In this document: positions 26,214-59,344 of the stretch, piece by piece
Layout of the letters: each line of letters opens with the position of its first letter
How positions within the stretch are numbered: position 1 is the first letter of the stretch
Virus record (IMG/VR): IMGVR_UViG_3300037067_020175
DNA from: an uncultured virus (IMG/VR IMGVR_UViG_3300037067_020175)
Taxonomy: Duplodnaviria > Heunggongvirae > Uroviricota > Caudoviricetes
Reading direction: 5' to 3' (one strand)
Length of the DNA: 64,000 bases
Notes under the pieces: generated by a model
Database searches by the model: none
The model's input: only the letters and a program-made list of their open reading frames with translations
What the model was told of the DNA's origin: nothing
Program-made: the position numbers and the translations under genes

Positions 26214-26522
26214 TTGGTGAATAAAAAAATGGCTTGTATTACAATTACGGTTACAGCTCCGGCATCAAATCTGGTTGCCGGGGAGTTCGACGTTGAACCA
26301 AAAACGTTGGTGGTTGGGGAAACGTTTACGGTTACACAGGTTGTGTCGAACACTGGTGGATCGTCAGGGATAGCAACTGTAGATTTCAGGGTCGGTGGGA
26401 TCAACGGAACTGTGGTTGCTACTAAGACGAAGACAATTGCTGCTGGGACTTCTAGCACTCTGAGTACTGTACTTGTTGCAGATACGGCTGGTCAAATCGG
26501 AATTTGTGCAACATTGAGATGA
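26214..26522 (+). CDS. CARDB-like Ig-fold protein
   Basis: VGETFTVTQVVSNTGG...TIAAGTS; resembles the N-terminus of the 1-533 protein. Confidence 0.65.
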   Translation: MVNKKMACITITVTAPASNLVAGEFDVEPKTLVVGETFTVTQVVSNTGGSSGIATVDFRVGGINGTVVATKTKTIAAGTSSTLSTVLVADTAGQIGICATLR

Positions 26523-26528
26523 TTACCT

Positions 26529-26786
26529 ATGACTGATTCTTGTCAGATTATAACGGTAACAGTAGGAACACAATGTAGTGACATCAACCAATGCCCTGTA
26601 GGACAACACTGCTTAGAAGGCGTGTGTATACCAGACGCAATACCAGTACAACCGTGGTATACTCAGATGGGATTTATGATTCCCATGTTGGGGATCGGGT
26701 TGCTTGGTGGATATATGATGTTCGGATCTGGTGGTAACTCTGTCAAGGCAACATATCCCGGCGGGATGCCGCCAAATTTAAAATAA
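26529..26786 (+). CDS. Small Cys-rich membrane-anchored protein
   Basis: CSDINQCPVGQHCLEGVC plus TM. Confidence 0.7.
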   Translation: MTDSCQIITVTVGTQCSDINQCPVGQHCLEGVCIPDAIPVQPWYTQMGFMIPMLGIGLLGGYMMFGSGGNSVKATYPGGMPPNLK

Positions 26787-27804: not shown

Positions 27805-28233
27805 ATGCCGCGAATAGGGGATGTAATTCAGACTTCTGATGGGAAAGTTTTGCAGATGGTTCCGAGAACTATAGATGATGGAGAAATTACCATAGGAACT
27901 CTCGCAAAACTGCTGGATCAGATAAATGTGAATCTGTCTATTCTTATCGATACCGAACGGTGGGTTGGAAAATATAATGCAATCACGGATCAAATTGATG
28001 CGAATACATCTGTTTCCGAATATAAGTTCAATTTCCCCCCACGGTATATCAAAATTAATGCGGATCAGCCAATAAAGGTGCAAATAAATGACATTGGAAA
28101 TCCCGTTATAGATATATCGGCAGCAGAATACCCATATGTGATTTCAGATATAAAACCCGGACTTGCAATACGATCTCTGTTTGTTACAACCGGGTCGCTG
28201 TTAACTAATATCACTATATTGGGAATGGGATAA
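27805..28233 (+). CDS. Putative single jelly-roll-like virion protein
   Basis: IRSLFVTTG; paralogue of 26800-27306. Confidence 0.55.
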   Translation: MPRIGDVIQTSDGKVLQMVPRTIDDGEITIGTLAKLLDQINVNLSILIDTERWVGKYNAITDQIDANTSVSEYKFNFPPRYIKINADQPIKVQINDIGNPVIDISAAEYPYVISDIKPGLAIRSLFVTTGSLLTNITILGMG

Positions 28234-29375
28234 TGGCAAACCAATGGTATATTCAATCCGGACAAATGGTTGGGAATTTCGGTGCTGGGGCTCCGGCTGG
28301 GATTCCTGTAGGGGGTGGGGTTGGATATCCAGACATCATTCTCGAAGGATCTGCAACTGATGTTTGCGATACAAAATCTGAGTTGATGTCGGCTTGTACA
28401 TCAACGACATCCGGAGACATCATATTTGTTCCAAATGGAACAACTATAGATCTCACTGGAGAAAGCCAATTAACGATAAATGCTGGCGTTACTGTTGCTT
28501 CCGATAGGGGAAATGCATCGCATAGTGGCGGGATTATTAAAAAGACCACATACACCGCAGATGACTGGACTGGTCGGATGTTTGACGTTGGTGGAACTGC
28601 GGTTAGAGTTACCGGAATAATTCTTGAGGGGCAGATGCTTCCCGATTCTGAAGAGCCACTGATATCGGAGGGTAATTATACACGCGGGATACTTAATTAT
28701 AATGGTTACACCAATCTGGTTGTAGACAATTGCGAACTTAGGGGGTGGTCGTATGCTGCTGTACAGACCCACATTTGCCCAACTGTTGGCAGACCTGTTG
28801 TAAAGTATAATTGGATTCACGATAACATAGCTCGTGGTGAAGGATATGGAATGGAGGTGTGGGGAGGAGATGCTCTTTTTGAATATAACTTGTGCGATTA
28901 TAACCGTCACTCTATAACAGGAACCGGAATGTCCGGTGAAAAATACGAGTGTTGTTACAACGTGTTCTTAGGGAATGGTTCCCCAATTGGAGGATTCCAT
29001 GTGGACGTTCACGAATCGATTGATGGTGAAGGCGAATCGTATAATTATTCTGGTGAAGAATACCACACGCACCACAATACCGTTTACGACATAGGGGGGT
29101 TGAGTATAGACCAAATGGGGTTTGTTCACGTAACGTGCGACCCTGTTGTTGGTCATTATATAAATGATAACATTATAGAAACAAATTGGGGAGGAATATG
29201 GCAAAACGCGAACGATGGACTCACGATTGCCAATTATGGTGGACAACACGGTGTTATAAATCAGACGCAATATCGTGGTTCTTCTCAGGTTCGCGTCTAT
29301 TGTACCGATAATAAATGGCGGGGCACTGATTATGAGGATAATACCGGCATATTGTGGTATGACGTAGCAGTGTGA
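28233..29375 (+). CDS. Right-handed beta-helix (pectin-lyase-like) protein
   Basis: GVTVASDRG, VDNCELRGW, NWIHDN, NRHSI. Confidence 0.75.
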   Translation: MANQWYIQSGQMVGNFGAGAPAGIPVGGGVGYPDIILEGSATDVCDTKSELMSACTSTTSGDIIFVPNGTTIDLTGESQLTINAGVTVASDRGNASHSGGIIKKTTYTADDWTGRMFDVGGTAVRVTGIILEGQMLPDSEEPLISEGNYTRGILNYNGYTNLVVDNCELRGWSYAAVQTHICPTVGRPVVKYNWIHDNIARGEGYGMEVWGGDALFEYNLCDYNRHSITGTGMSGEKYECCYNVFLGNGSPIGGFHVDVHESIDGEGESYNYSGEEYHTHHNTVYDIGGLSIDQMGFVHVTCDPVVGHYINDNIIETNWGGIWQNANDGLTIANYGGQHGVINQTQYRGSSQVRVYCTDNKWRGTDYEDNTGILWYDVAV

Positions 29376-40571: not shown

Positions 40572-42170
40572 TTATGCATTCTGGTAGTTTCTCTCAAGCG
40601 GAGCTACAAGCGATATACTATTGGTGATAGACCTTGCGATGTTCCCGGTAGCTTTTACGAATTGTCCGGTTTCGAGACCAATACCAACTACTGTTATCGG
40701 TGCGTCGTCTGTTGGAGAGGCATTCGGTAAAGTATTACCTCGCTGGATATTCGTGTCGTAAGCGAAGGTGTGAGTTACCGTAGCATCCCCATCCACTACA
40801 GACCCCATAATCTGAGTGAGTGTCCCACCGGTATCTGCGGTTTCCGTTTCCTCAGCATGTGTGAGTGCATATGAGAAGTGAGTCCCGTCCGATGTCGCGC
40901 TTACAGTGAAAATACCATTATACCCGGATCCACCAATACCAGCGACACGCACTATATCATCAATAACAAGACCATGCGCTGTGGCAGTAGTTATTGTTGC
41001 TACGTTTGCAGCGCTGCAAGCACGGTGCGTGGATGTTACTGCGTTTGATGTATCCACGAGGATGGCATTCGATGTCCCATAATCATATCCGAGATTGCTT
41101 CCTGAGTCATCATTGGTGAAATATACCCAGTATCTGGCATCTGCATCGTTGACAAGATTGTCTCCAAAGTTGATTGTGAGCACAGCCGTGTATGGAAATG
41201 TCAGTTCGGCTCCGAGGTCATCGACAAACACCAGTCTGTTCACATCGTTGCTCAGGTAGTTGTCTATAAAAACACCGCCCTCTGTGACTGCAACCGTATA
41301 GAGCGTGTCACCAACGAATCTCAATAATGCACCGGTCTTCTTACCCGTTTGTGTTCCGGCACCATCGTCGATATCGGTAGCCTGTCTAAGCTCGTGCTGG
41401 ACAAATTCGAATATTTGTTCCGCTGTTCCGCTGTTGCCATCGATTATAACATGGAAGTCGTAGTCGGTGCCTCCGATATCTCTTGTCTGGGCAGTTCCGT
41501 ACCACGTTATTGTCATTCCGGTGTATGGCGCATTTCCTTCAACATATGTATCATCGTGAGTAATCTTAGGGTCACTTGCATTTGCAAGTGGGAAACGGTA
41601 CGCCTGATATGTCATCACGGTAGCACCGATATCGCTCAATTGTGAGAATGCATACGTTTTCTGGTAGATACGACAGTATATTTTGAAGTAGCTGCGATAA
41701 TCGAAGCTTCCGTGGGTTACATCCCCGTAAATTTTAACGGCTTGGTTTACAGCTCCGGTTAACTGGAAGTTAGCGGTGCTTCCACCACTCGACTGTAGGA
41801 AGTATGCCTGATCTGTACCTCCGATGCTGCCAAGAGATATGATACCAGCCCATTCTTCCTGAGAAACACCACCCGTGTCTTTTAAAGCCCATCCTCCGTT
41901 TCGAAGGAGATATCGTGTGGTATCATCTTCCCAGTCCCACCCGTTTACCATTTCGAATTGTTCGTCGGTAATTGGTGACATCGGGAACGGGAATTTGATA
42001 TATGTCGAACTCGATTTCCACAATTCTTTCAGCTTACTGTACACGCACTTCAGCGTAACCCCGTCACTTGTCAAAGAACCAGCTACAACCAATTGTACCG
42101 TTTTTCCCGAAGTGTCGATCACTATATTCGTTGGGTCTACAAGATCGTCAGGATCTGTTAACATTGTCAT
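40572..42170 (-). CDS. Putative virion fibre/spike protein
   Basis: Thr/Gly-rich; ATITTATAHGL..DDIV....GYNGIFTV module. Confidence 0.6.
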   Translation of the reverse strand: MTMLTDPDDLVDPTNIVIDTSGKTVQLVVAGSLTSDGVTLKCVYSKLKELWKSSSTYIKFPFPMSPITDEQFEMVNGWDWEDDTTRYLLRNGGWALKDTGGVSQEEWAGIISLGSIGGTDQAYFLQSSGGSTANFQLTGAVNQAVKIYGDVTHGSFDYRSYFKIYCRIYQKTYAFSQLSDIGATVMTYQAYRFPLANASDPKITHDDTYVEGNAPYTGMTITWYGTAQTRDIGGTDYDFHVIIDGNSGTAEQIFEFVQHELRQATDIDDGAGTQTGKKTGALLRFVGDTLYTVAVTEGGVFIDNYLSNDVNRLVFVDDLGAELTFPYTAVLTINFGDNLVNDADARYWVYFTNDDSGSNLGYDYGTSNAILVDTSNAVTSTHRACSAANVATITTATAHGLVIDDIVRVAGIGGSGYNGIFTVSATSDGTHFSYALTHAEETETADTGGTLTQIMGSVVDGDATVTHTFAYDTNIQRGNTLPNASPTDDAPITVVGIGLETGQFVKATGNIARSITNSISLVAPLERNYQNA

Positions 42171-46655: not shown

Positions 46656-47255
46656 TTACTTTTTCTGGTAAAGGGATTCCATAGTATTTGTGATTTCTAT
46701 AAGATTGTTGAAAGCTTCGACCTCGTAACCATCCAACCTGAGCTTCCCTATTCCGTCTATGAGGTCTTTGGTCTCATTCAGGTACATGCGCACGAATCCG
46801 CTTTCGAATCCTTCCATATCCATGAGATTGTCTATGCGGTCACAAATTTTAACCAGAACAGCAAAACGCGGAGTGTGGCTGCTTATGAGTCTCTTGATAC
46901 AGTCCTTGTTCTTAACAGAACGTGGGTGCAGGTCGTCGTTCTTTGTCAGCGCGAGCACGGCATCCGTGATCTGAGTCTTCTCTATATCAGTGAGATGCAT
47001 GTCGTTCATGGCTTGGTTGTATATCGCACGACCTTCATCCCCGCAATCTTCGAGGATATCGTGCATCCATGCTGCGATTGCTGAGTGGTATGCCGTAGGG
47101 TTATAGAATATCACCAGTTGCGCAACCCGCGCAGGGTGGACTATATACGGTACATTCTGGTGCTTCCTTACCTGTCCGTCATGGGCAAGTGCCGCAGCAG
47201 TTGAAGCGACCTTTAACGCTTGTATGTATTTAAATGATTTTACCATTGTTTTCAC
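46656..47255 (-). CDS. HD-domain small alarmone hydrolase (Mesh1/SpoT-like)
   Basis: AHDGQVRK..PYIVHP..V...AAWMHDILED...VKICDRIDNL. Confidence 0.85.
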   Translation of the reverse strand: MKTMVKSFKYIQALKVASTAAALAHDGQVRKHQNVPYIVHPARVAQLVIFYNPTAYHSAIAAWMHDILEDCGDEGRAIYNQAMNDMHLTDIEKTQITDAVLALTKNDDLHPRSVKNKDCIKRLISSHTPRFAVLVKICDRIDNLMDMEGFESGFVRMYLNETKDLIDGIGKLRLDGYEVEAFNNLIEITNTMESLYQKK

Positions 47256-47420: not shown

Positions 47421-47509
47421 TGCAGCCGACGAGGATCGAACTCGTTCCTCTTGGTATCTTCCTTTTTCAAGTTGGAAGCCAAGTATGCCACCGTTGACAC
47501 CCCGACTGC
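47421..47509 (-). tRNA. tRNA-Gly(TCC) with 17-nt BHB intron (47456-47472)
   Basis: CTTGG CTTCCA|ACTTGAAAAAGGAAGAT|A CCAAG; strict BHB at 37/38. Confidence 0.9.
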
Positions 47510-50413: not shown

Positions 50414-50489
50414 TGGGACTGGTGCGATTTGAACGCACATCAACGCGGTTTTGGAGACCGGCACTCTTATCCAGTTAAGCTACAGCCCC
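50414..50489 (-). tRNA. tRNA-Trp(CCA), intronless, C27.C43 mismatch
   Basis: CCGGT CT-CCA-AA ACCGC; G1 is the last base of the pth2 TAG. Confidence 0.9.
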
Positions 50490-50866
50490 TACAAAAGTTT
50501 AAGGTCTTTCGTAAGTGACGTAAGGTCGTCGAGAGCCGCGCTGCCTTCCGCAAGTGGTTCAAAACCGACAGCCGTTGTTGTTCCCGGTTCGATCTGTGTG
50601 AGACCGGCATCTACAACGATTGCACTGTTAACACCAAAGGAATGTGCCTTCTGTGTGATTTTAACCATAGTCTGGAGATCAGGGACTTTCAGGACAATCT
50701 TACGCATCCCATACTTACGCCACATCTTTGAGATGTATTCTACTCCAACATCTGCACCCATAATTGCAGCGTGAGCTACTTGCACGCATTTCTTGCCGCA
50801 ATCTATCCCAAGATCGGATCGTATGAGGATTACCTGTTTGTATTCCCTGATTTCAGATGGTTTCAT
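50489..50866 (-). CDS. pth2: Peptidyl-tRNA hydrolase Pth2
   Basis: KQVILIRSDL...GK...QVAHAA...KIVLK...VDAGLTQIEPGTTT...LKLL. Confidence 0.92.
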   Translation of the reverse strand: MKPSEIREYKQVILIRSDLGIDCGKKCVQVAHAAIMGADVGVEYISKMWRKYGMRKIVLKVPDLQTMVKITQKAHSFGVNSAIVVDAGLTQIEPGTTTAVGFEPLAEGSAALDDLTSLTKDLKLL

Positions 50867-52035
50867 TATGTATACCTCTTGATTGCGACTATTCCACCGA
50901 ATGCAGTCTCTAATATATTCCCGCTTTCGGTGTTTGTCGCGATTATCTCTACTTTTGTATCAGTTTTAGAGTATCTCGACACTTTGTCGCGATAATTGTC
51001 TACATAGGTGTTTCGATTAGAAGATATTAATACTATCGCGACACTTCCATGTTCAATCGATTCTGAAATTGTATCGATACCGTATATAGCTTTTCCAGTG
51101 TCTCTCGCAAGTTCTTTGAGGAATTCGTCGAACAGTTCTTTCTGGTGTTCCGATTCGATATCGGATATCTTACCTTTAGCCGCGCGCACAAGTTCCTGTA
51201 ATCCCGATTCGTTGGTGTAACATGTGTCGAATACACCGACGATTTTCTTCCGTAGTTCGTGGTTAAGGTAGTCTCCGCGCGCGAATTCGTCTTTGGTCAT
51301 TCCACATCCGCCTATGATGATACCTTTCAGATTTGTTCCATATTGAACAAATGTGTTGCTTGCGCGTTCACCGAGGTTCGTAAAGAACCCGTGGATTGCG
51401 ATATCCCGTAACCGTTCGAACCGTTGCGCGGATTGTCCACCCTGACTATGCTTATTTGGGACGAGAGAGTCGTATGTTCCTGAAAGACGCACAGATGCGC
51501 CTTTGAGTATTCCCCACGCAGACTCGTGCAGGTCGAGAACGATGAGACCGTATGTGTCTCCAGTATCGATTAAGTCTTCAGCATCAGATGTCGCAAATTG
51601 TGAATCGCACCGATACAGGAAAGATTTGACCGGTGATGGTGGATTGAGAAGATGATACTCGAATTCAGTGCGGTCTCCGCGCGTTATAACCTCTCCGCAG
51701 AATGCAATCAGACCGTTGTCCGGTATAATCCCAATCTGTGAGAATCTGGATATAAGTGCGTTCAGTGCGTGCTGGACGCTGGTTCTTGTCTGTTTACTCT
51801 TGATGTTGCCAGTTCCTGCAATCTCGTTCCGTAGACGGTTTGCAACATCAGAAATGCGTTTTGATCCCGGAACGTAGAGGGATATAAGTTCAGTGCCGTT
51901 CCCACGTTTCTCTTTTAAGGAAGAGATCTCACTTTTGAAAATATTTCAATTTCCGTCTTCTGTCGGTTTGATATTTCCTTCACGATCTCCTATAAGATTC
52001 TTTTCTCCTTTGAGATTTCTATCGTGTTCATCCAT
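50866..52035 (-). CDS. prf1: Archaeal peptide chain release factor 1 (aRF1) with one in-frame TGA at 51948-51946
   Basis: 1170 nt in frame from ATG 52035; GTELISLY, NIKS, YRCDS, KHSQGGQSAQRF, FGGIVA; the ORF track captures only the 3' 208 aa. Confidence 0.88.
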
Positions 52036-52070
52036 AATCATTAGTGTGTGATTGTAGTATATAAATATAA

Positions 52071-52146
52071 CGCGCACGGGGAGATTTGAACTCCCGGCAT
52101 CAGAATTAGAAGTTCTGCCTATTAGTCCAAGCTATAGTACGTGCGC
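52071..52146 (-). tRNA. tRNA-Arg(TCT)
   Basis: CAGAA CT-TCT-AA TTCTG. Confidence 0.9.
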
Positions 52147-52150
52147 TCAA

Positions 52151-52221
52151 TGCACCCAGACGGTAACGCTCCGTCGCATCTCGGATGTAAACCGAGTATT
52201 CTACTTTTAAATTACGGGTGC
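52151..52221 (-). tRNA. tRNA-Val(TAC)
   Basis: CTCGG TT-TAC-AT CCGAG; atypical T-loop AGCGTTA. Confidence 0.8.
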
Positions 52222-52225
52222 TCAA

Positions 52226-52299
52226 TGGGTGCGAGGCGATTCGAACACCTACCCCCCGGATCAAAAGTCCAGTGCTCTTCCATTTGGAGCTACGCACCC
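52226..52299 (-). tRNA. tRNA-Lys(TTT)
   Basis: CTGGA CT-TTT-GA TCCGG. Confidence 0.9.
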
Positions 52300-52302
52300 G
52301 TA

Positions 52303-52378
52303 TCTGCTGGGAGAGACTTGAACTCTCGATGAATAATAGGTCTACAGCCCATCGCAATCGCCGCTATGCCACCAGCAG
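52303..52378 (-). tRNA. tRNA-Tyr(GTA)
   Basis: ATGGG CT-GTA-GA CCTAT; C1:G72/A73, no long variable arm (archaeal type). Confidence 0.9.
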
Positions 52379-52540: not shown

Positions 52541-53266
52541 CTACTTCCTGTTTGTTGGCTCAAGCCATAATTCCCCGGTTCCAAATACTGCGTATTGGAT
52601 TTTTGGGAATTCGGATAGTATATCTAATGTTTGAATTGTTGAGTATTTAAACATTTTTAACAATTCGTCTTTTTTTCTGTCCATAGATATGTTGGTTCTT
52701 AACAGTTCGACGTATCTGTCGTCGTCAAGTAGTCTCTGGATCGTCGGGTCGATCTGCATTCCCTTCATAACAGAAAATCGAAGCGCGCGGATCATACGTA
52801 AAGCATCTTCAGCAAATCTTTCGCGGGGATCTCCAACGCATCTAAGATATCTGGCTCCAATATCAGCAATCCCGTGGAATGGATCTATATATGTGAGTCC
52901 TTCTGTACACGGGTATATTTGCATGGCTATTGCGTTTACGGTAAAGTCTCTCCGTGCGAGGTCGTCATAGATTGTCCCGTGATATACCACATCTGGTCTT
53001 CGTCCGTCGGTGTATGCACCTTCGCGCCTACAGAGAACAAAGTCAGCATCTCCTGTGAATCCTTCGAGATTGTTTAGTCGTGCCCGTATGGTGAGATATT
53101 CTGGCTTTTCGAGATAGATCTTCCCGTGTCTCTTGATGAAATCTCGCATTGCCTCGTAGCTTGATGCTTCTACAGAGAAATCGATGTCTTTATTTTTAAC
53201 TCCGAGGAACTGATCGCGCACAGCACCACCAACCATATATATACCTGTAACGGACATTTTGACCAA
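52541..53266 (-). CDS. Class II (bacterial-type) tRNA nucleotidyltransferase / CCA-adding enzyme, short form
   Basis: VGGAVRD...KDIDF, DLARRDFTVNA, RFAEDALRMIRALRF. Confidence 0.88.
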   Translation of the reverse strand: MVKMSVTGIYMVGGAVRDQFLGVKNKDIDFSVEASSYEAMRDFIKRHGKIYLEKPEYLTIRARLNNLEGFTGDADFVLCRREGAYTDGRRPDVVYHGTIYDDLARRDFTVNAIAMQIYPCTEGLTYIDPFHGIADIGARYLRCVGDPRERFAEDALRMIRALRFSVMKGMQIDPTIQRLLDDDRYVELLRTNISMDRKKDELLKMFKYSTIQTLDILSEFPKIQYAVFGTGELWLEPTNRK

Positions 53267-54835: not shown

Positions 54836-55045
54836 ATGGCTGAACATTGTTTATGTTATAATACTGGAACCACAAATATCCAGAGTGCGTCGTTTGAAGA
54901 AGCGGCTGTATTAGATAGTGGTGTCGCTGGAATCGCAGTGTTATCTATATATTTACTCGCCGGTGCATTTTTGGTCGGACTTGGTTTTGCGTATGGATCT
55001 AATACAGCAAATTGCTTACCCACATGTGGGAAGAGATACGGGTAA
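54836..55045 (+). CDS. Small membrane protein
   Basis: TATA box at 54808; TM segment. Confidence 0.55.
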
Positions 55046-55414
55046 CCGGTACTTGTGGAATCCTATACCATTTCTTGATTTTAATATACCAGCACAAGTT
55101 TTATTACAACAGAACTCTGTGATGCCTTTTCCGATTTGACGATTATAGTGACTACTTGTTATAGGAAAGATCGTCTCACAAATATGACAAGATATCATTC
55201 TCGTAGGTAATTTTGGGTGATGAAAGGAAGCATGTGGTTTTTTGGAAGTTATCTCTAAATTTTCTATACGATTGTCTGTTTTTATACCATTTATATGATG
55301 TACTTCTTCATTTGGATGTAACTTTCTACCAAGATATGACTCCATCACTATACGATGTTCGAGAACTGTTTCTCCATCAGATGTTACTCTCGGATATGGA
55401 TTATTTCTATCCAT
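55016..55414 (-). CDS. HNH homing endonuclease
   Basis: [12 protein letters not shown]...[16 protein letters not shown]...H. Confidence 0.88.
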
Positions 55415-56325: not shown

Positions 56326-57636
56326 TTATTCTCCTTGCGATTCCTCGATGTCTACAGACTCCGGGTCGAGCTTGATTATATCTTCCAAAACTTTGAACTG
56401 GAAACTCTTGTACTTCCAGACCTGCCACTTTGAACCATCCGCGCGCACGACAACTCCCTCTCTGATATGCTTGTCGCAGAGTGTGGAATCTCCATTCACA
56501 TGGTGGTCGTCGAGGTAGTGCAGGAGTTGTGTTGCGTTTGCGTTCTCTCCTTCTCCGGTGCCAAGTCTGAACAGGGTTCTACCGAGCTCAGGGACGTGCT
56601 TAACATCCATCTCCGCGCACCGGTGCTTCACCATGTCCCATGAGTAGTCTACTTCGTCTCCTTCATCGTTGGTGATGGTCATGCGGTAGACATAGACATC
56701 GTGGACACCCTGACCGCAACCATACGTGAAGTGAGTGGTCTTCCCATACTTCTTCACGAATTCCTTGTCCTGAAGCTTGGTGTTGTCAGCCGAAGGCATG
56801 ATGGGAGTGTGCTCAGCCGCGTATCCTACCACTTCGTAGTATACTGTTTCTCCCTTGCGGAGTTTGCCGACAAACCGGTTGTGCGCGCATTCCCGGTATT
56901 TCTCGTTGTCTCCGTAGAATCCACGGTAAGTTGCGAAATCCTTGATCACAACCCGGCGTGTGCCACCGACATACTTGTAGTTTCTGACCGGATTGATTAT
57001 GGTTCTTTTCAGGAGTCCGTTGATAATGCGTCCATACCACGCGTGCTTCTCTTCAATAGAGTTGCTGGTGCGCTGAGATGTTCCATGAACCTTCTCGGTT
57101 ATGATCAGGAACATTCCGTCCTTGAGTTCATCGAGACGGTATGCAAGCTGCTGAGTATCGGGCATCTCGTAGAACATTGGGAACTTGATCTTTTCTACGA
57201 ATTCTTTCTTCTGTGAGCGCGCATTCTGCGTCTTTGTATTCACGAACTTCTCACAGATCTTGTGACCGTTGAACTCTGTGAATGCAAGTCCGATTTCGAG
57301 TTTGTAGATGTCTATTCCCGTATATGACACACTTTCGAGTGAACAGAAGTATCCATCGCTCTTTTCCTTGCGGATTTTCTGCGTGCGTACTTTTCCATTT
57401 GGGTCGAAAAGTCCTCCTATGTTCTTACCGTCTACTACATTGCGCACGAGGTTGTTTACCCGCAGGTATTCCTCCGATAGTCTGCCATCGGCTGGAAAGT
57501 AAATTCCCACATCGTTCTCTTTGACATCGAGACCGACTACGACTTGGTTTCCGAAGCACTCACCAAGTAAAAGGCTGTGTGCGTCCGGGTGCTTTCTCAC
57601 GTTTGTGATTCTTGTTACAAATGCTGTGTATGCCAA
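56326..57636 (-). CDS. RNA ligase, DRB0094/Rnl2-like family with N-terminal OB-like domain
   Basis: ITEKVHGTS (motif I), VYYE, REGVVVR, WKYKS; N-term KHPDAHSL..GIYFPADG. Confidence 0.85.
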   Translation of the reverse strand: MAYTAFVTRITNVRKHPDAHSLLLGECFGNQVVVGLDVKENDVGIYFPADGRLSEEYLRVNNLVRNVVDGKNIGGLFDPNGKVRTQKIRKEKSDGYFCSLESVSYTGIDIYKLEIGLAFTEFNGHKICEKFVNTKTQNARSQKKEFVEKIKFPMFYEMPDTQQLAYRLDELKDGMFLIITEKVHGTSQRTSNSIEEKHAWYGRIINGLLKRTIINPVRNYKYVGGTRRVVIKDFATYRGFYGDNEKYRECAHNRFVGKLRKGETVYYEVVGYAAEHTPIMPSADNTKLQDKEFVKKYGKTTHFTYGCGQGVHDVYVYRMTITNDEGDEVDYSWDMVKHRCAEMDVKHVPELGRTLFRLGTGEGENANATQLLHYLDDHHVNGDSTLCDKHIREGVVVRADGSKWQVWKYKSFQFKVLEDIIKLDPESVDIEESQGE

Positions 57637-58804: not shown

Positions 58805-59344
58805 TTACTTTTTTCGGTTTGTGTTCTTACCTTTGTATGTGTCTGTAAATGTATGGCAATTTGGACATAACAATTCCAAATTTTCGTCGGTGTTATTTGC
58901 AGTATCCCCATCTTTATGGTGACGTTCTAACGGGATTTTCTCTCCAAGCCAAGTTGTTCCATGACACCGTTCGCATTTGTGACCGCGCGTGAGAATCAAA
59001 TAAGTCTTGGTTGCACTTATACCCGGATTCTTCCCATTGCGTATTGTATCGGATACTAAATATATAGATTTACACTTTGGAGAACAGAATGTTTTTCTTT
59101 CACATCTGGCACCACATTGTTTGCAGAATTTTCTTTTATATCCGCGAGATATGTCATTAAAATTTTTAGAACACCTGTGTGAGCAAAATTCATTCTTGCG
59201 TTTGTCGTAAGAGAGTGGGGTTTTGCAATGTTTACATAGTTTTGGATTTAGATTATACTTCTTTATACGTTCCATCATTTGCAACTTGTGAGTTATAATC
59301 GAGTTTTCGTTTCCAAGCTTCTGCCCTTCTTTAGTCCATACCAT
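58805..59344 (-). CDS. HNH endonuclease with Cys-rich N-terminal modules
   Basis: CERC...LERHHKDGDTANNTDENLELLCPNCH. Confidence 0.88.
   Translation of the reverse strand: MVWTKEGQKLGNENSIITHKLQMMERIKKYNLNPKLCKHCKTPLSYDKRKNEFCSHRCSKNFNDISRGYKRKFCKQCGARCERKTFCSPKCKSIYLVSDTIRNGKNPGISATKTYLILTRGHKCERCHGTTWLGEKIPLERHHKDGDTANNTDENLELLCPNCHTFTDTYKGKNTNRKK

Follow-up and report, generated by a model that had tools for sequence, protein, structure and literature searches.

How is an archaeal-type class-I release factor (aRF1) made from a gene whose reading frame is closed by a UGA stop codon soon after its start? The question is raised by a gene on the minus strand of the uncultured virus record IMGVR_UViG_3300037067_020175, of which a stretch of 64,000 nucleotides was analysed (here referred to as the window). 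The gene has a short leader, an in-frame UGA and, in the same frame, a body with the domains and motifs of aRF1, and the hexamer AAT-TGA at the junction is found again in related loci. Judging by the sequences compared here, the UGA very probably has to be recoded for the factor to be made. The full reading, in which recoding is coupled to negative feedback on termination activity, was given a probability of roughly 0.55–0.6.

The aRF1 gene and its in-frame UGA

The features of the locus, in the direction of transcription, are the following.

52058..52065, minus strand: TATA-like box TTTATATA, read directly, 22 nt 5′ of the leader ATG at 52035
51949..52035, minus strand: leader, ATG and 28 sense codons (MDEHDRNLKGEKNLIGDREGNIKPTEDGN), read from the sequence
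51946..51951, minus strand: hexamer AAT-TGA, invariant in 7/7 loci, with the in-frame UGA at 51948-51946
50866..51945, minus strand: aRF1 body, 359 codons and TAA, with Pfam domains eRF1_1/2/3 and a match to TIGR03676
50489..50866, minus strand: Pth2 (peptidyl-tRNA hydrolase), PF01981 with an E-value of 4.9e-28 and TIGR00283 with 94.7 bits (cut-off 82)
50414..50489, minus strand: tRNA-Trp(CCA) with a 4-bp anticodon stem, directly 3′ of Pth2

The layout described in the first-pass annotation was found on re-reading the sequence. The leader ATG lies at 52035-52033, with a second in-frame ATG at 52041, and the 29 sense codons that begin with it (MDEHDRNLK...PTEDGN) are followed by the TGA at 51948-51946, past which the same frame stays open for 359 codons, to the TAA at 50868-50866. 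It had been claimed that no start codon lies between this TGA and GTG 51492, and a scan of the frame agrees, as the earliest ATG, GTG or TTG past the TGA is that GTG, well within the protein. The TATA-like box that had been seen upstream of the ATG is also there (TTTATATA, 22 nt before it). At the other end of the gene, the ATG of Pth2 overlaps the aRF1 stop codon (ATAATGA).

The TGA, which the first-pass annotation had named as a possible sequencing error, is no error, as contigs from several sources carry it. A separate metagenome contig (L003), which matches the window at all but 1 of 9077 bases, has the TGA, and two contigs from other studies cover it without any difference (run X3 record 3, over 51168-52099, and run X5 record 16, over 51821-51971). 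Run X1 also covers the TGA and is possibly the window's own source. Runs X4 and X5 leave parts of the window uncovered, which is uninformative. A variant contig was seen in run X3 (record 4), in which the 141 letters 51916-52056, comprising the leader and promoter region, are replaced by 97 others; leader length is thus variable in nature and polymorphic in that sample.

The body was said to encode an intact aRF1 with GTELISLY, NIKS, YRCDS and GGQ, and all of these were found, together with domain scores above their cut-offs: 54.1, 125.2 and 61.7 bits for eRF1_1, eRF1_2 and eRF1_3 in Pfam, and 406.4 bits for TIGR03676, at which the cut-off is 234.7. NIKS (51807-51796) and the YxCxxxF motif, here YRCDSQF, serve stop-codon recognition, and GGQ (51441-51433) is catalytic. 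All 35 aligned sequences share GGQ as well as the Y, C and F of YxCxxxF, NIKS is found in every aligned sequence that covers its region, and no obvious change was detected in the stop-recognition motifs. By its domains and motifs, the product is predicted to be a complete archaeal class-I release factor.

The UGA falls in the unconserved N-terminal tail of this protein. The third residue past the TGA is aligned with position 5 of the TIGR03676 profile and, in the best-matching relative of solved structure, 4af1_A (a protein named peptide chain release factor subunit 1), with chain residue 17. From where these two alignments begin, the UGA would stand just before the folded N domain, in a tail that should tolerate any residue.

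Conservation of AAT-TGA and selection on the gene

A metagenome scan gave 157 relatives, of which 80 were kept, and the members of the clade among them are L003-L010. The N-terminus could be read as DNA in seven loci, namely the window (duplicated by L003) and L004-L009; L010 has no N-terminus. All seven carry AAT-TGA in the same column and in frame with the body, at 52–62% protein identity. Thus, homologues were positive for leader plus in-frame stop in every locus, and a sense codon at the TGA column, which would have spoken for an ordinary gene, was found in none of the seven at the DNA level.

The leaders themselves differ. In L004-L007 the leader has 8 codons, ATG followed by one variable codon and Pro-Glu-Glu-Asp-Gly/Glu-Asn; L008 has Met-Asp-Met-Met-Asn, and the leaders of L009 and the window are longer than those of L004-L007. 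The window has ATC at the ATG column of L004-L007, its frame being open to the upstream ATG, and the last six residues of its leader, PTEDGN, match the PEEDGN leader of the relatives. The Pro codon of the leader varies (CCT, CCA, CCC, CCA, CCG) and the Asp codon is GAT or GAC, which fits a translated sequence. Homology between the viral PEEDGN and the N-terminus of Methanomassiliicoccus aRF1 (PDESDN) was considered and rejected, as the match is too short and acidic.

Past the stop, the first two codons are AAT ATT in the window and CAG AAT, CTA AAT, CTA AAT, CTA AAC, CAG ATA and CAG GTT in L004 to L009, respectively. The ATT at 51942, which had been proposed as an alternative start, is therefore not conserved, since the relatives have AAT, AAC, ATA or GTT in its place. 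A start codon within ten codons after the aligned start of the body was identified in L006 only (TTG, 9 codons past the stop).

In protein databases the clade comprises about 30 sequences with 49–66% identity, compared with the roughly 40% that they share with cellular aRF1. Among the 29 aligned clade proteins, 26 begin downstream of the TGA column, while P0001, P0002 and P0012 span it with W; no aligned protein has another residue there. Both kinds of entry are expected if gene callers either restarted after the TGA or read it as Trp, at which the family would be systematically mis-annotated, truncated in 26/29 database entries and read with W in the rest.

As a control, 152 cellular aRF1 loci (L011-L162; 35–45% identity) were collected from metagenome and genome scans, 3 of which ran off their contigs. 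No stop beside the conserved N-terminal helix was found in the other 149 (0/149): in every one of them the nearest stop upstream of the helix is at least 9 codons away and is separated from it by an ATG, GTG or TTG. With 7/7 in the clade against 0/149 in cells, the layout exceeds what chance would give. Only two distant loci came from a profile scan of viral_contigs, L001 and L002 (28–34% identity), and their starts are ordinary. With a single protein as query, viral_contigs gave no aRF1 match, and tblastn of the aRF1 and of an 875-aa ORF against a phage collection gave no match either.

A quick maximum-likelihood tree was built from 28 cellular rows and 18 rows of the clade, the latter being the window, 6 loci and 11 of the 29 database proteins; the remaining 18 clade proteins and most of the cellular loci did not enter it. 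In this tree the element-borne sequences group on a long branch of their own (SH-aLRT 100), and TGA loci occur in all three subclades of the clade. The nearest cellular aRF1s are from Thermoplasmatota, the tree giving no named donor.

Across the 21 pairs of the seven genes, dN ranges from 0.15 to 0.42, and dS is 2.0–4.1 in the 6 pairs for which it could be computed and saturated in the other 15. In each of the seven diverged copies the frame is open for about 355 codons, and dN is far below dS, which indicates that the aRF1 gene is under purifying selection and bears out the earlier statement that it is intact. At the same time, synonymous positions have drifted widely: a single codon is kept in all seven genes in only 5 of the 118 columns where the amino acid is both invariant and degenerate, AAT and AAC both occur in each of the 3 invariant Asn columns, and the true 3′ stops of the genes are TAA in 4, TAG in 2 and TGA in 1. 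Given the saturated dS and the varied codons and 3′ stops, AAT-TGA is held at the nucleotide level.

Proposed recoding at the UGA and rival explanations

We infer that translation starts at the leader ATG, from the signals that precede it. In L004, L005 and L006 a tRNA gene ends 12–23 nt before this ATG, and the spacer contains GGTGATC (L004), GGAGTGAT (L005) or GGAGAT (L006), all resembling Shine-Dalgarno (SD) sequences. A TATA-like box stands exactly 22 nt before the ATG in the window (TTTATATA) and in L007 (TTTATATC), both of which are without SD-like motifs. From general knowledge of archaeal gene expression, we take the spacer motifs to be SD sites and the boxes to be promoters of leaderless mRNAs.

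Ribosomes would accordingly begin at the leader ATG. In the window they would probably do so on a leaderless transcript driven by the TATA-like box, and in the relatives after the SD-like motifs. With the UGA in the A site, aRF1 of the host or of the element would terminate and release a short peptide or, alternatively, the stop would be recoded and the full-length factor made. Readthrough is the most likely mode of recoding, most likely by a near-cognate aminoacyl-tRNA, probably tRNA-Trp, that reads the UGA. Since the product is itself a release factor, its output should fall as termination activity rises, and the yield of full-length factor could in this way act as a negative-feedback sensor of termination capacity. 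Bacterial RF2 and the Mimivirus release factor are the analogues from which this feedback is proposed. The first-pass annotation went further and had full-length aRF1 made only under weak host termination, for example with host aRF1 limiting or inactivated by defence, which nothing found here supports.

The sequence around the stop is partly in line with readthrough. C follows the UGA in 6/7 loci, and in L005-L007 it opens a CTA codon. In the Mimivirus/Megavirus release-factor gene, the stop proposed to be read through also stands in a UGA-C context, which is rated a weak terminator from yeast data (PMC3521657). A crude set of 72 non-overlapping ORFs, covering 87% of the window, has TAA as the stop in 44, TGA in 16 and TAG in 12; TGAC ends 1 of the 72, and 11 of the 44 TAA stops have C next, these being small numbers. 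As TGA terminates other window genes, the genetic code is standard. Genome-wide reassignment of UGA was rejected on this ground, with 16/72 ORFs ending in TGA and no other long window gene split by one, and no anticodon TCA was found among the 23 tRNAs of the window or the tRNAs of L004-L009.

One further pair of ORFs should be mentioned here. On the plus strand at 26214-26786, ORFs of 102 and 85 aa lie in one frame, separated by TGA-T and one further codon, just after a protease-like gene (phrog_20754). The pair may be due to chance or may be a second readthrough candidate.

Several observations weigh against recoding with feedback. The window's own context is TGA-A and not TGA-C, and no conserved RNA structure was found 3′ of the stop, the alignment fold giving one 6-bp stem of -4.1 kcal/mol with essentially no covariation. 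The W of P0001, P0002 and P0012 could be encoded by TGG, in which case the stop is not universal in the clade. P0003 begins with L directly after the stop column, which could reflect a TTG start, with no recoding needed in that member. The partial L010, a low-coverage contig of 1066 bp, has an extra in-frame TAA at 429-431, where the near-identical protein P0015 and other relatives have Tyr; at least one copy is thus broken or mis-sequenced. Finally, feedback by the gene's own product would depend on the viral factor recognising UGA.

Perhaps the short-stem tRNA-Trp(CCA) of the element inserts Trp at the UGA; aRF1 would then be gated by tRNA supply, as a timing switch or feed-forward loop, and not by the level of release factor. 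The gene lies in one string with aRF1 and Pth2 on the minus strand, and in the ARAGORN fold its C27.C43 is unpaired, leaving a 4-bp anticodon stem, which is unique among the window tRNAs folded; X3 and X4 contigs cover it unchanged. A UGA-decoding tRNA-Trp(CCA) with a 4-bp stem is described in the excerpted text of PMC13092985, and the window tRNA shares its open top anticodon-stem pair. That system, as far as the excerpts go, concerns genome-wide UGA-to-Trp reassignment or readthrough in eukaryotes and bacteria, whereas here TGA is a normal stop and the relatives have 5-bp stems. The window, L004, L008 and L009 each have a tRNA-Trp(CCA) no more than about 1.5 kb from aRF1, and W occupies the site in three database proteins, although in tRNA-rich elements such proximity may be chance. 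The short stem is not clade-wide as the TGA is: the tRNA-Trp of L004, L008 and L009 have normal 5-bp stems (0/3 share the open pair) and L005 has no tRNA-Trp in 5.4 kb, so that a short-stem tRNA cannot explain a stop found throughout the clade. A general UGA suppressor would moreover extend the 16/72 window ORFs that end in TGA. A Hirsh-type change (position 24) was also looked for in the viral tRNA-Trp and rejected, since its 11:24 pair is C-G in the ARAGORN fold and offers no analogue. Gating by this tRNA is unlikely. The short-stem tRNA may be relevant in this element, whose TGA-A context differs from the rest. It is very unlikely that the ribosome instead hops over the stop, with peptidyl-tRNA-Asn leaving AAU and re-pairing with an Asn codon one or two codons on. 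The resulting product would have no residue for the stop position, and release-factor feedback would still apply. The take-off codon AAT is invariant (7/7) while Asn codons elsewhere vary, and an Asn codon follows the stop in 5/7 loci (at +1 in the window, AAT, and at +2 in L004-L006, AAT, and L007, AAC). The landing codon is absent, however, from L008 (CAG ATA) and L009 (CAG GTT), the five compatible loci belong to two subclades only and may represent few independent events, and the alignment fold offers no stimulatory structure.

The UGA would need no recoding if the leader were a separate upstream ORF and aRF1 began independently, or by termination-reinitiation, at a non-canonical codon after the TGA. 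The match to the aRF1 profile does open right beside the stop, with position 5 at residue 3, P0003 apparently begins with L directly past the stop column, and L006 has its TTG 9 codons downstream. Past the stop, however, the loci have no start or near-start codon in common, and the SD-like motifs and TATA-like boxes precede the leader ATG and not the body. The leader is in frame with the body in 7/7 loci, and the stop is always TGA, whereas the stop of a plain upstream ORF could drift as the 3′ stops of these genes do. A start at the TTG or ATT inside AATTGA was rejected, both being out of frame. We thus regard independent initiation as distinctly unlikely. A pseudogene, a sequencing error or selenocysteine at the UGA can hardly be credited. 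UGA is the selenocysteine codon and L010 does contain an extra internal TAA, but these explanations are largely refuted by conservation, with the TGA present in L003 and in the X3 and X5 contigs of two further studies, and with seven diverged copies open at dN far below dS. For selenocysteine in particular, Rfam at gathering thresholds gave tRNAs only in the window and in L004-L009, the 3′ end of aRF1 overlaps the next gene and so leaves no 3′ untranslated region for an archaeal selenocysteine insertion (SECIS) element, and the UGA site is in an unconserved N-terminal tail.

Readthrough with negative feedback is therefore the reading that we carry forward. A wider scheme can be built on it, a termination homeostat in which aRF1 is gated by a dedicated AAU-UGA-C signal, as the first programmed non-selenocysteine, non-pyrrolysine stop recoding in Archaea, and is here paired with a UGA-reading short-stem tRNA-Trp and Pth2. 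We offer it tentatively and consider it doubtful. If true, the element could make termination in the infected cell leakier and also bring it back, for instance against a host response that shuts termination down or to set the time of late gene expression.

Genomic setting and comparison with known systems

The element is at least 116 kb long, of which the window comprises 64 kb, and relatives are on contigs of 120–220 kb. The other features near the aRF1 gene are listed below, the last line giving the tRNA-Arg genes that flank aRF1 in the related loci and in the window.

52071..52146, minus strand: tRNA-Arg(TCT), directly upstream of the promoter-like box and one of a four-tRNA run at 52071-52378
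52541..53266, minus strand: CCA-adding/poly(A)-polymerase head-domain protein of 241 aa, PF01743 with an E-value of 5.5e-23, upstream of the tRNA run
55016..55414 and 58805..59344, minus strand: HNH endonuclease genes, between tRNA runs
46656..47255, minus strand: HD-domain protein, adjoining a tRNA run
56326..57636, minus strand: RNA ligase, adjoining a tRNA run
tRNA-Arg flanking genes: L004, 648-951; L005, 2652-3273 and 4516-4592; L006, 348-423; L010, 822-895; window, 52071-52146

There are 23 tRNA genes in the window (17 from ARAGORN at default settings and 6 from Rfam), all on the minus strand between 47266 and 58764 and in several one-strand runs. The tRNA-Gly(TCC) at 47421-47509 has a 17-nt intron by ARAGORN, and tRNAs with introns also occur in L004 (Trp) and L008 (Asn); such introns are typical of archaeal tRNA genes. 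An archaeal host is indicated by the archaeal-type aRF1, Pth2 and tRNA introns. Genes for tRNA-Arg with several anticodons flank aRF1 in most loci, which may be a shared gene order or chance in tRNA arrays. Pth2 adjoins aRF1 in this element only and not in L004-L009.

The 241-aa protein at 52541-53266 shows the PolyA_pol head domain (PF01743) only and falls far below every NCBIfam cut-off for CCA-adding enzymes. We take PF01743 to mark the bacterial/eukaryotic class of CCA-adding enzyme, which here stands beside an archaeal-type aRF1 and Pth2. Together, the HD protein, RNA ligase, Pth2, aRF1 and CCA-type enzyme look like a module for tRNA and translation upkeep. The window further encodes a primase-polymerase-like protein of 1109 aa, a UvsW-like helicase, a DNA methylase, PKD and beta-helix proteins, and members of several PHROG families to which no function is assigned.

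No capsid, portal or terminase was found in the 64 kb (Pfam with the 43 largest ORFs, PHROGs with 32 ORFs). A 380-aa capsid candidate, ORF 28233-29372, was rejected because it is a beta-helix protein according to a protein atlas, and ORF 40575-42170 gave low-confidence rows only in the same resource. The label "viral" is thus plausible and, with none of these three genes in the 64 kb, unproven; what the evidence supports is a virus-like, archaeal, tRNA-rich element.

The first-pass annotation knew of no archaeal-virus example of such a gene, and full-text literature searches, supplementary files aside, likewise brought up no release factor of an archaeon or archaeal virus whose gene has a stop inside it. 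A term search of the available text of PMC13465236 gave no mention of release factors. According to the parts of a 2021 review (PMC8211752) and of PMC8037382 that were available, established recoding in Archaea comprises selenocysteine, pyrrolysine and -1 frameshifting only. If readthrough at this locus is true, it would be the first programmed stop-codon readthrough in Archaea beyond selenocysteine and pyrrolysine, and the invariant AAU-UGA(-C) would be a short, testable recoding signal for archaeal translation.

Compared with the aRF1 of cells (Thermoplasmatota and methanogens; TIGR03676), the clade has the same three domains and the same NIKS, YxCxxxF and GGQ motifs, at 35–45% identity, and it is without the C-domain insertion of four longer cellular sequences in the alignment. 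Unlike the genes of the element clade, those of cells start in the ordinary way and are not interrupted by a stop (0/149). What the clade shares with RF2- and Mimivirus-type genes is an early, conserved in-frame stop (7/7 loci, with no conserved start downstream).

RF2, a member of a protein family with no relation to aRF1, acts on UGA and UAA only, whereas aRF1 reads all three stops. The exclusive use of UGA in the clade therefore needs another cause, such as leakiness or a near-cognate tRNA-Trp. The bacterial RF2 gene prfB has an early in-frame UGA after a short leader, at which recoding competes with termination by its own product class (described also in PMC3521657). Its local context U-UGA-C is also that of the relatives (U-UGA-C). 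RF2 needs a +1 shift, whereas the body here is in the zero frame in 7/7 loci and no frameshift is called for.

A close parallel is that of Mimivirus R726 and Megavirus mg280 (Jeudy et al. 2012, PMC3521657), which are also virus-borne genes for a factor of the eRF1/aRF1 type with a strictly conserved 5′ in-frame UGA followed by C. The authors propose UGA readthrough with Trp as the likely residue and an autoregulatory element. Their gene, again by the available text, needs a second recoding event, a frameshift, whereas the frame here is continuous and one event would be enough. These giant viruses of amoebae have a eukaryotic host and UGA-C; here the host would be an archaeon, the window has UGA-A, and the stop lies 8–30 codons from the start, before the folded N domain. 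If recoding with feedback holds, the control of a release factor by an internal stop in its own gene would have arisen for a third time, here on the aRF1 scaffold and by plain in-frame recoding.

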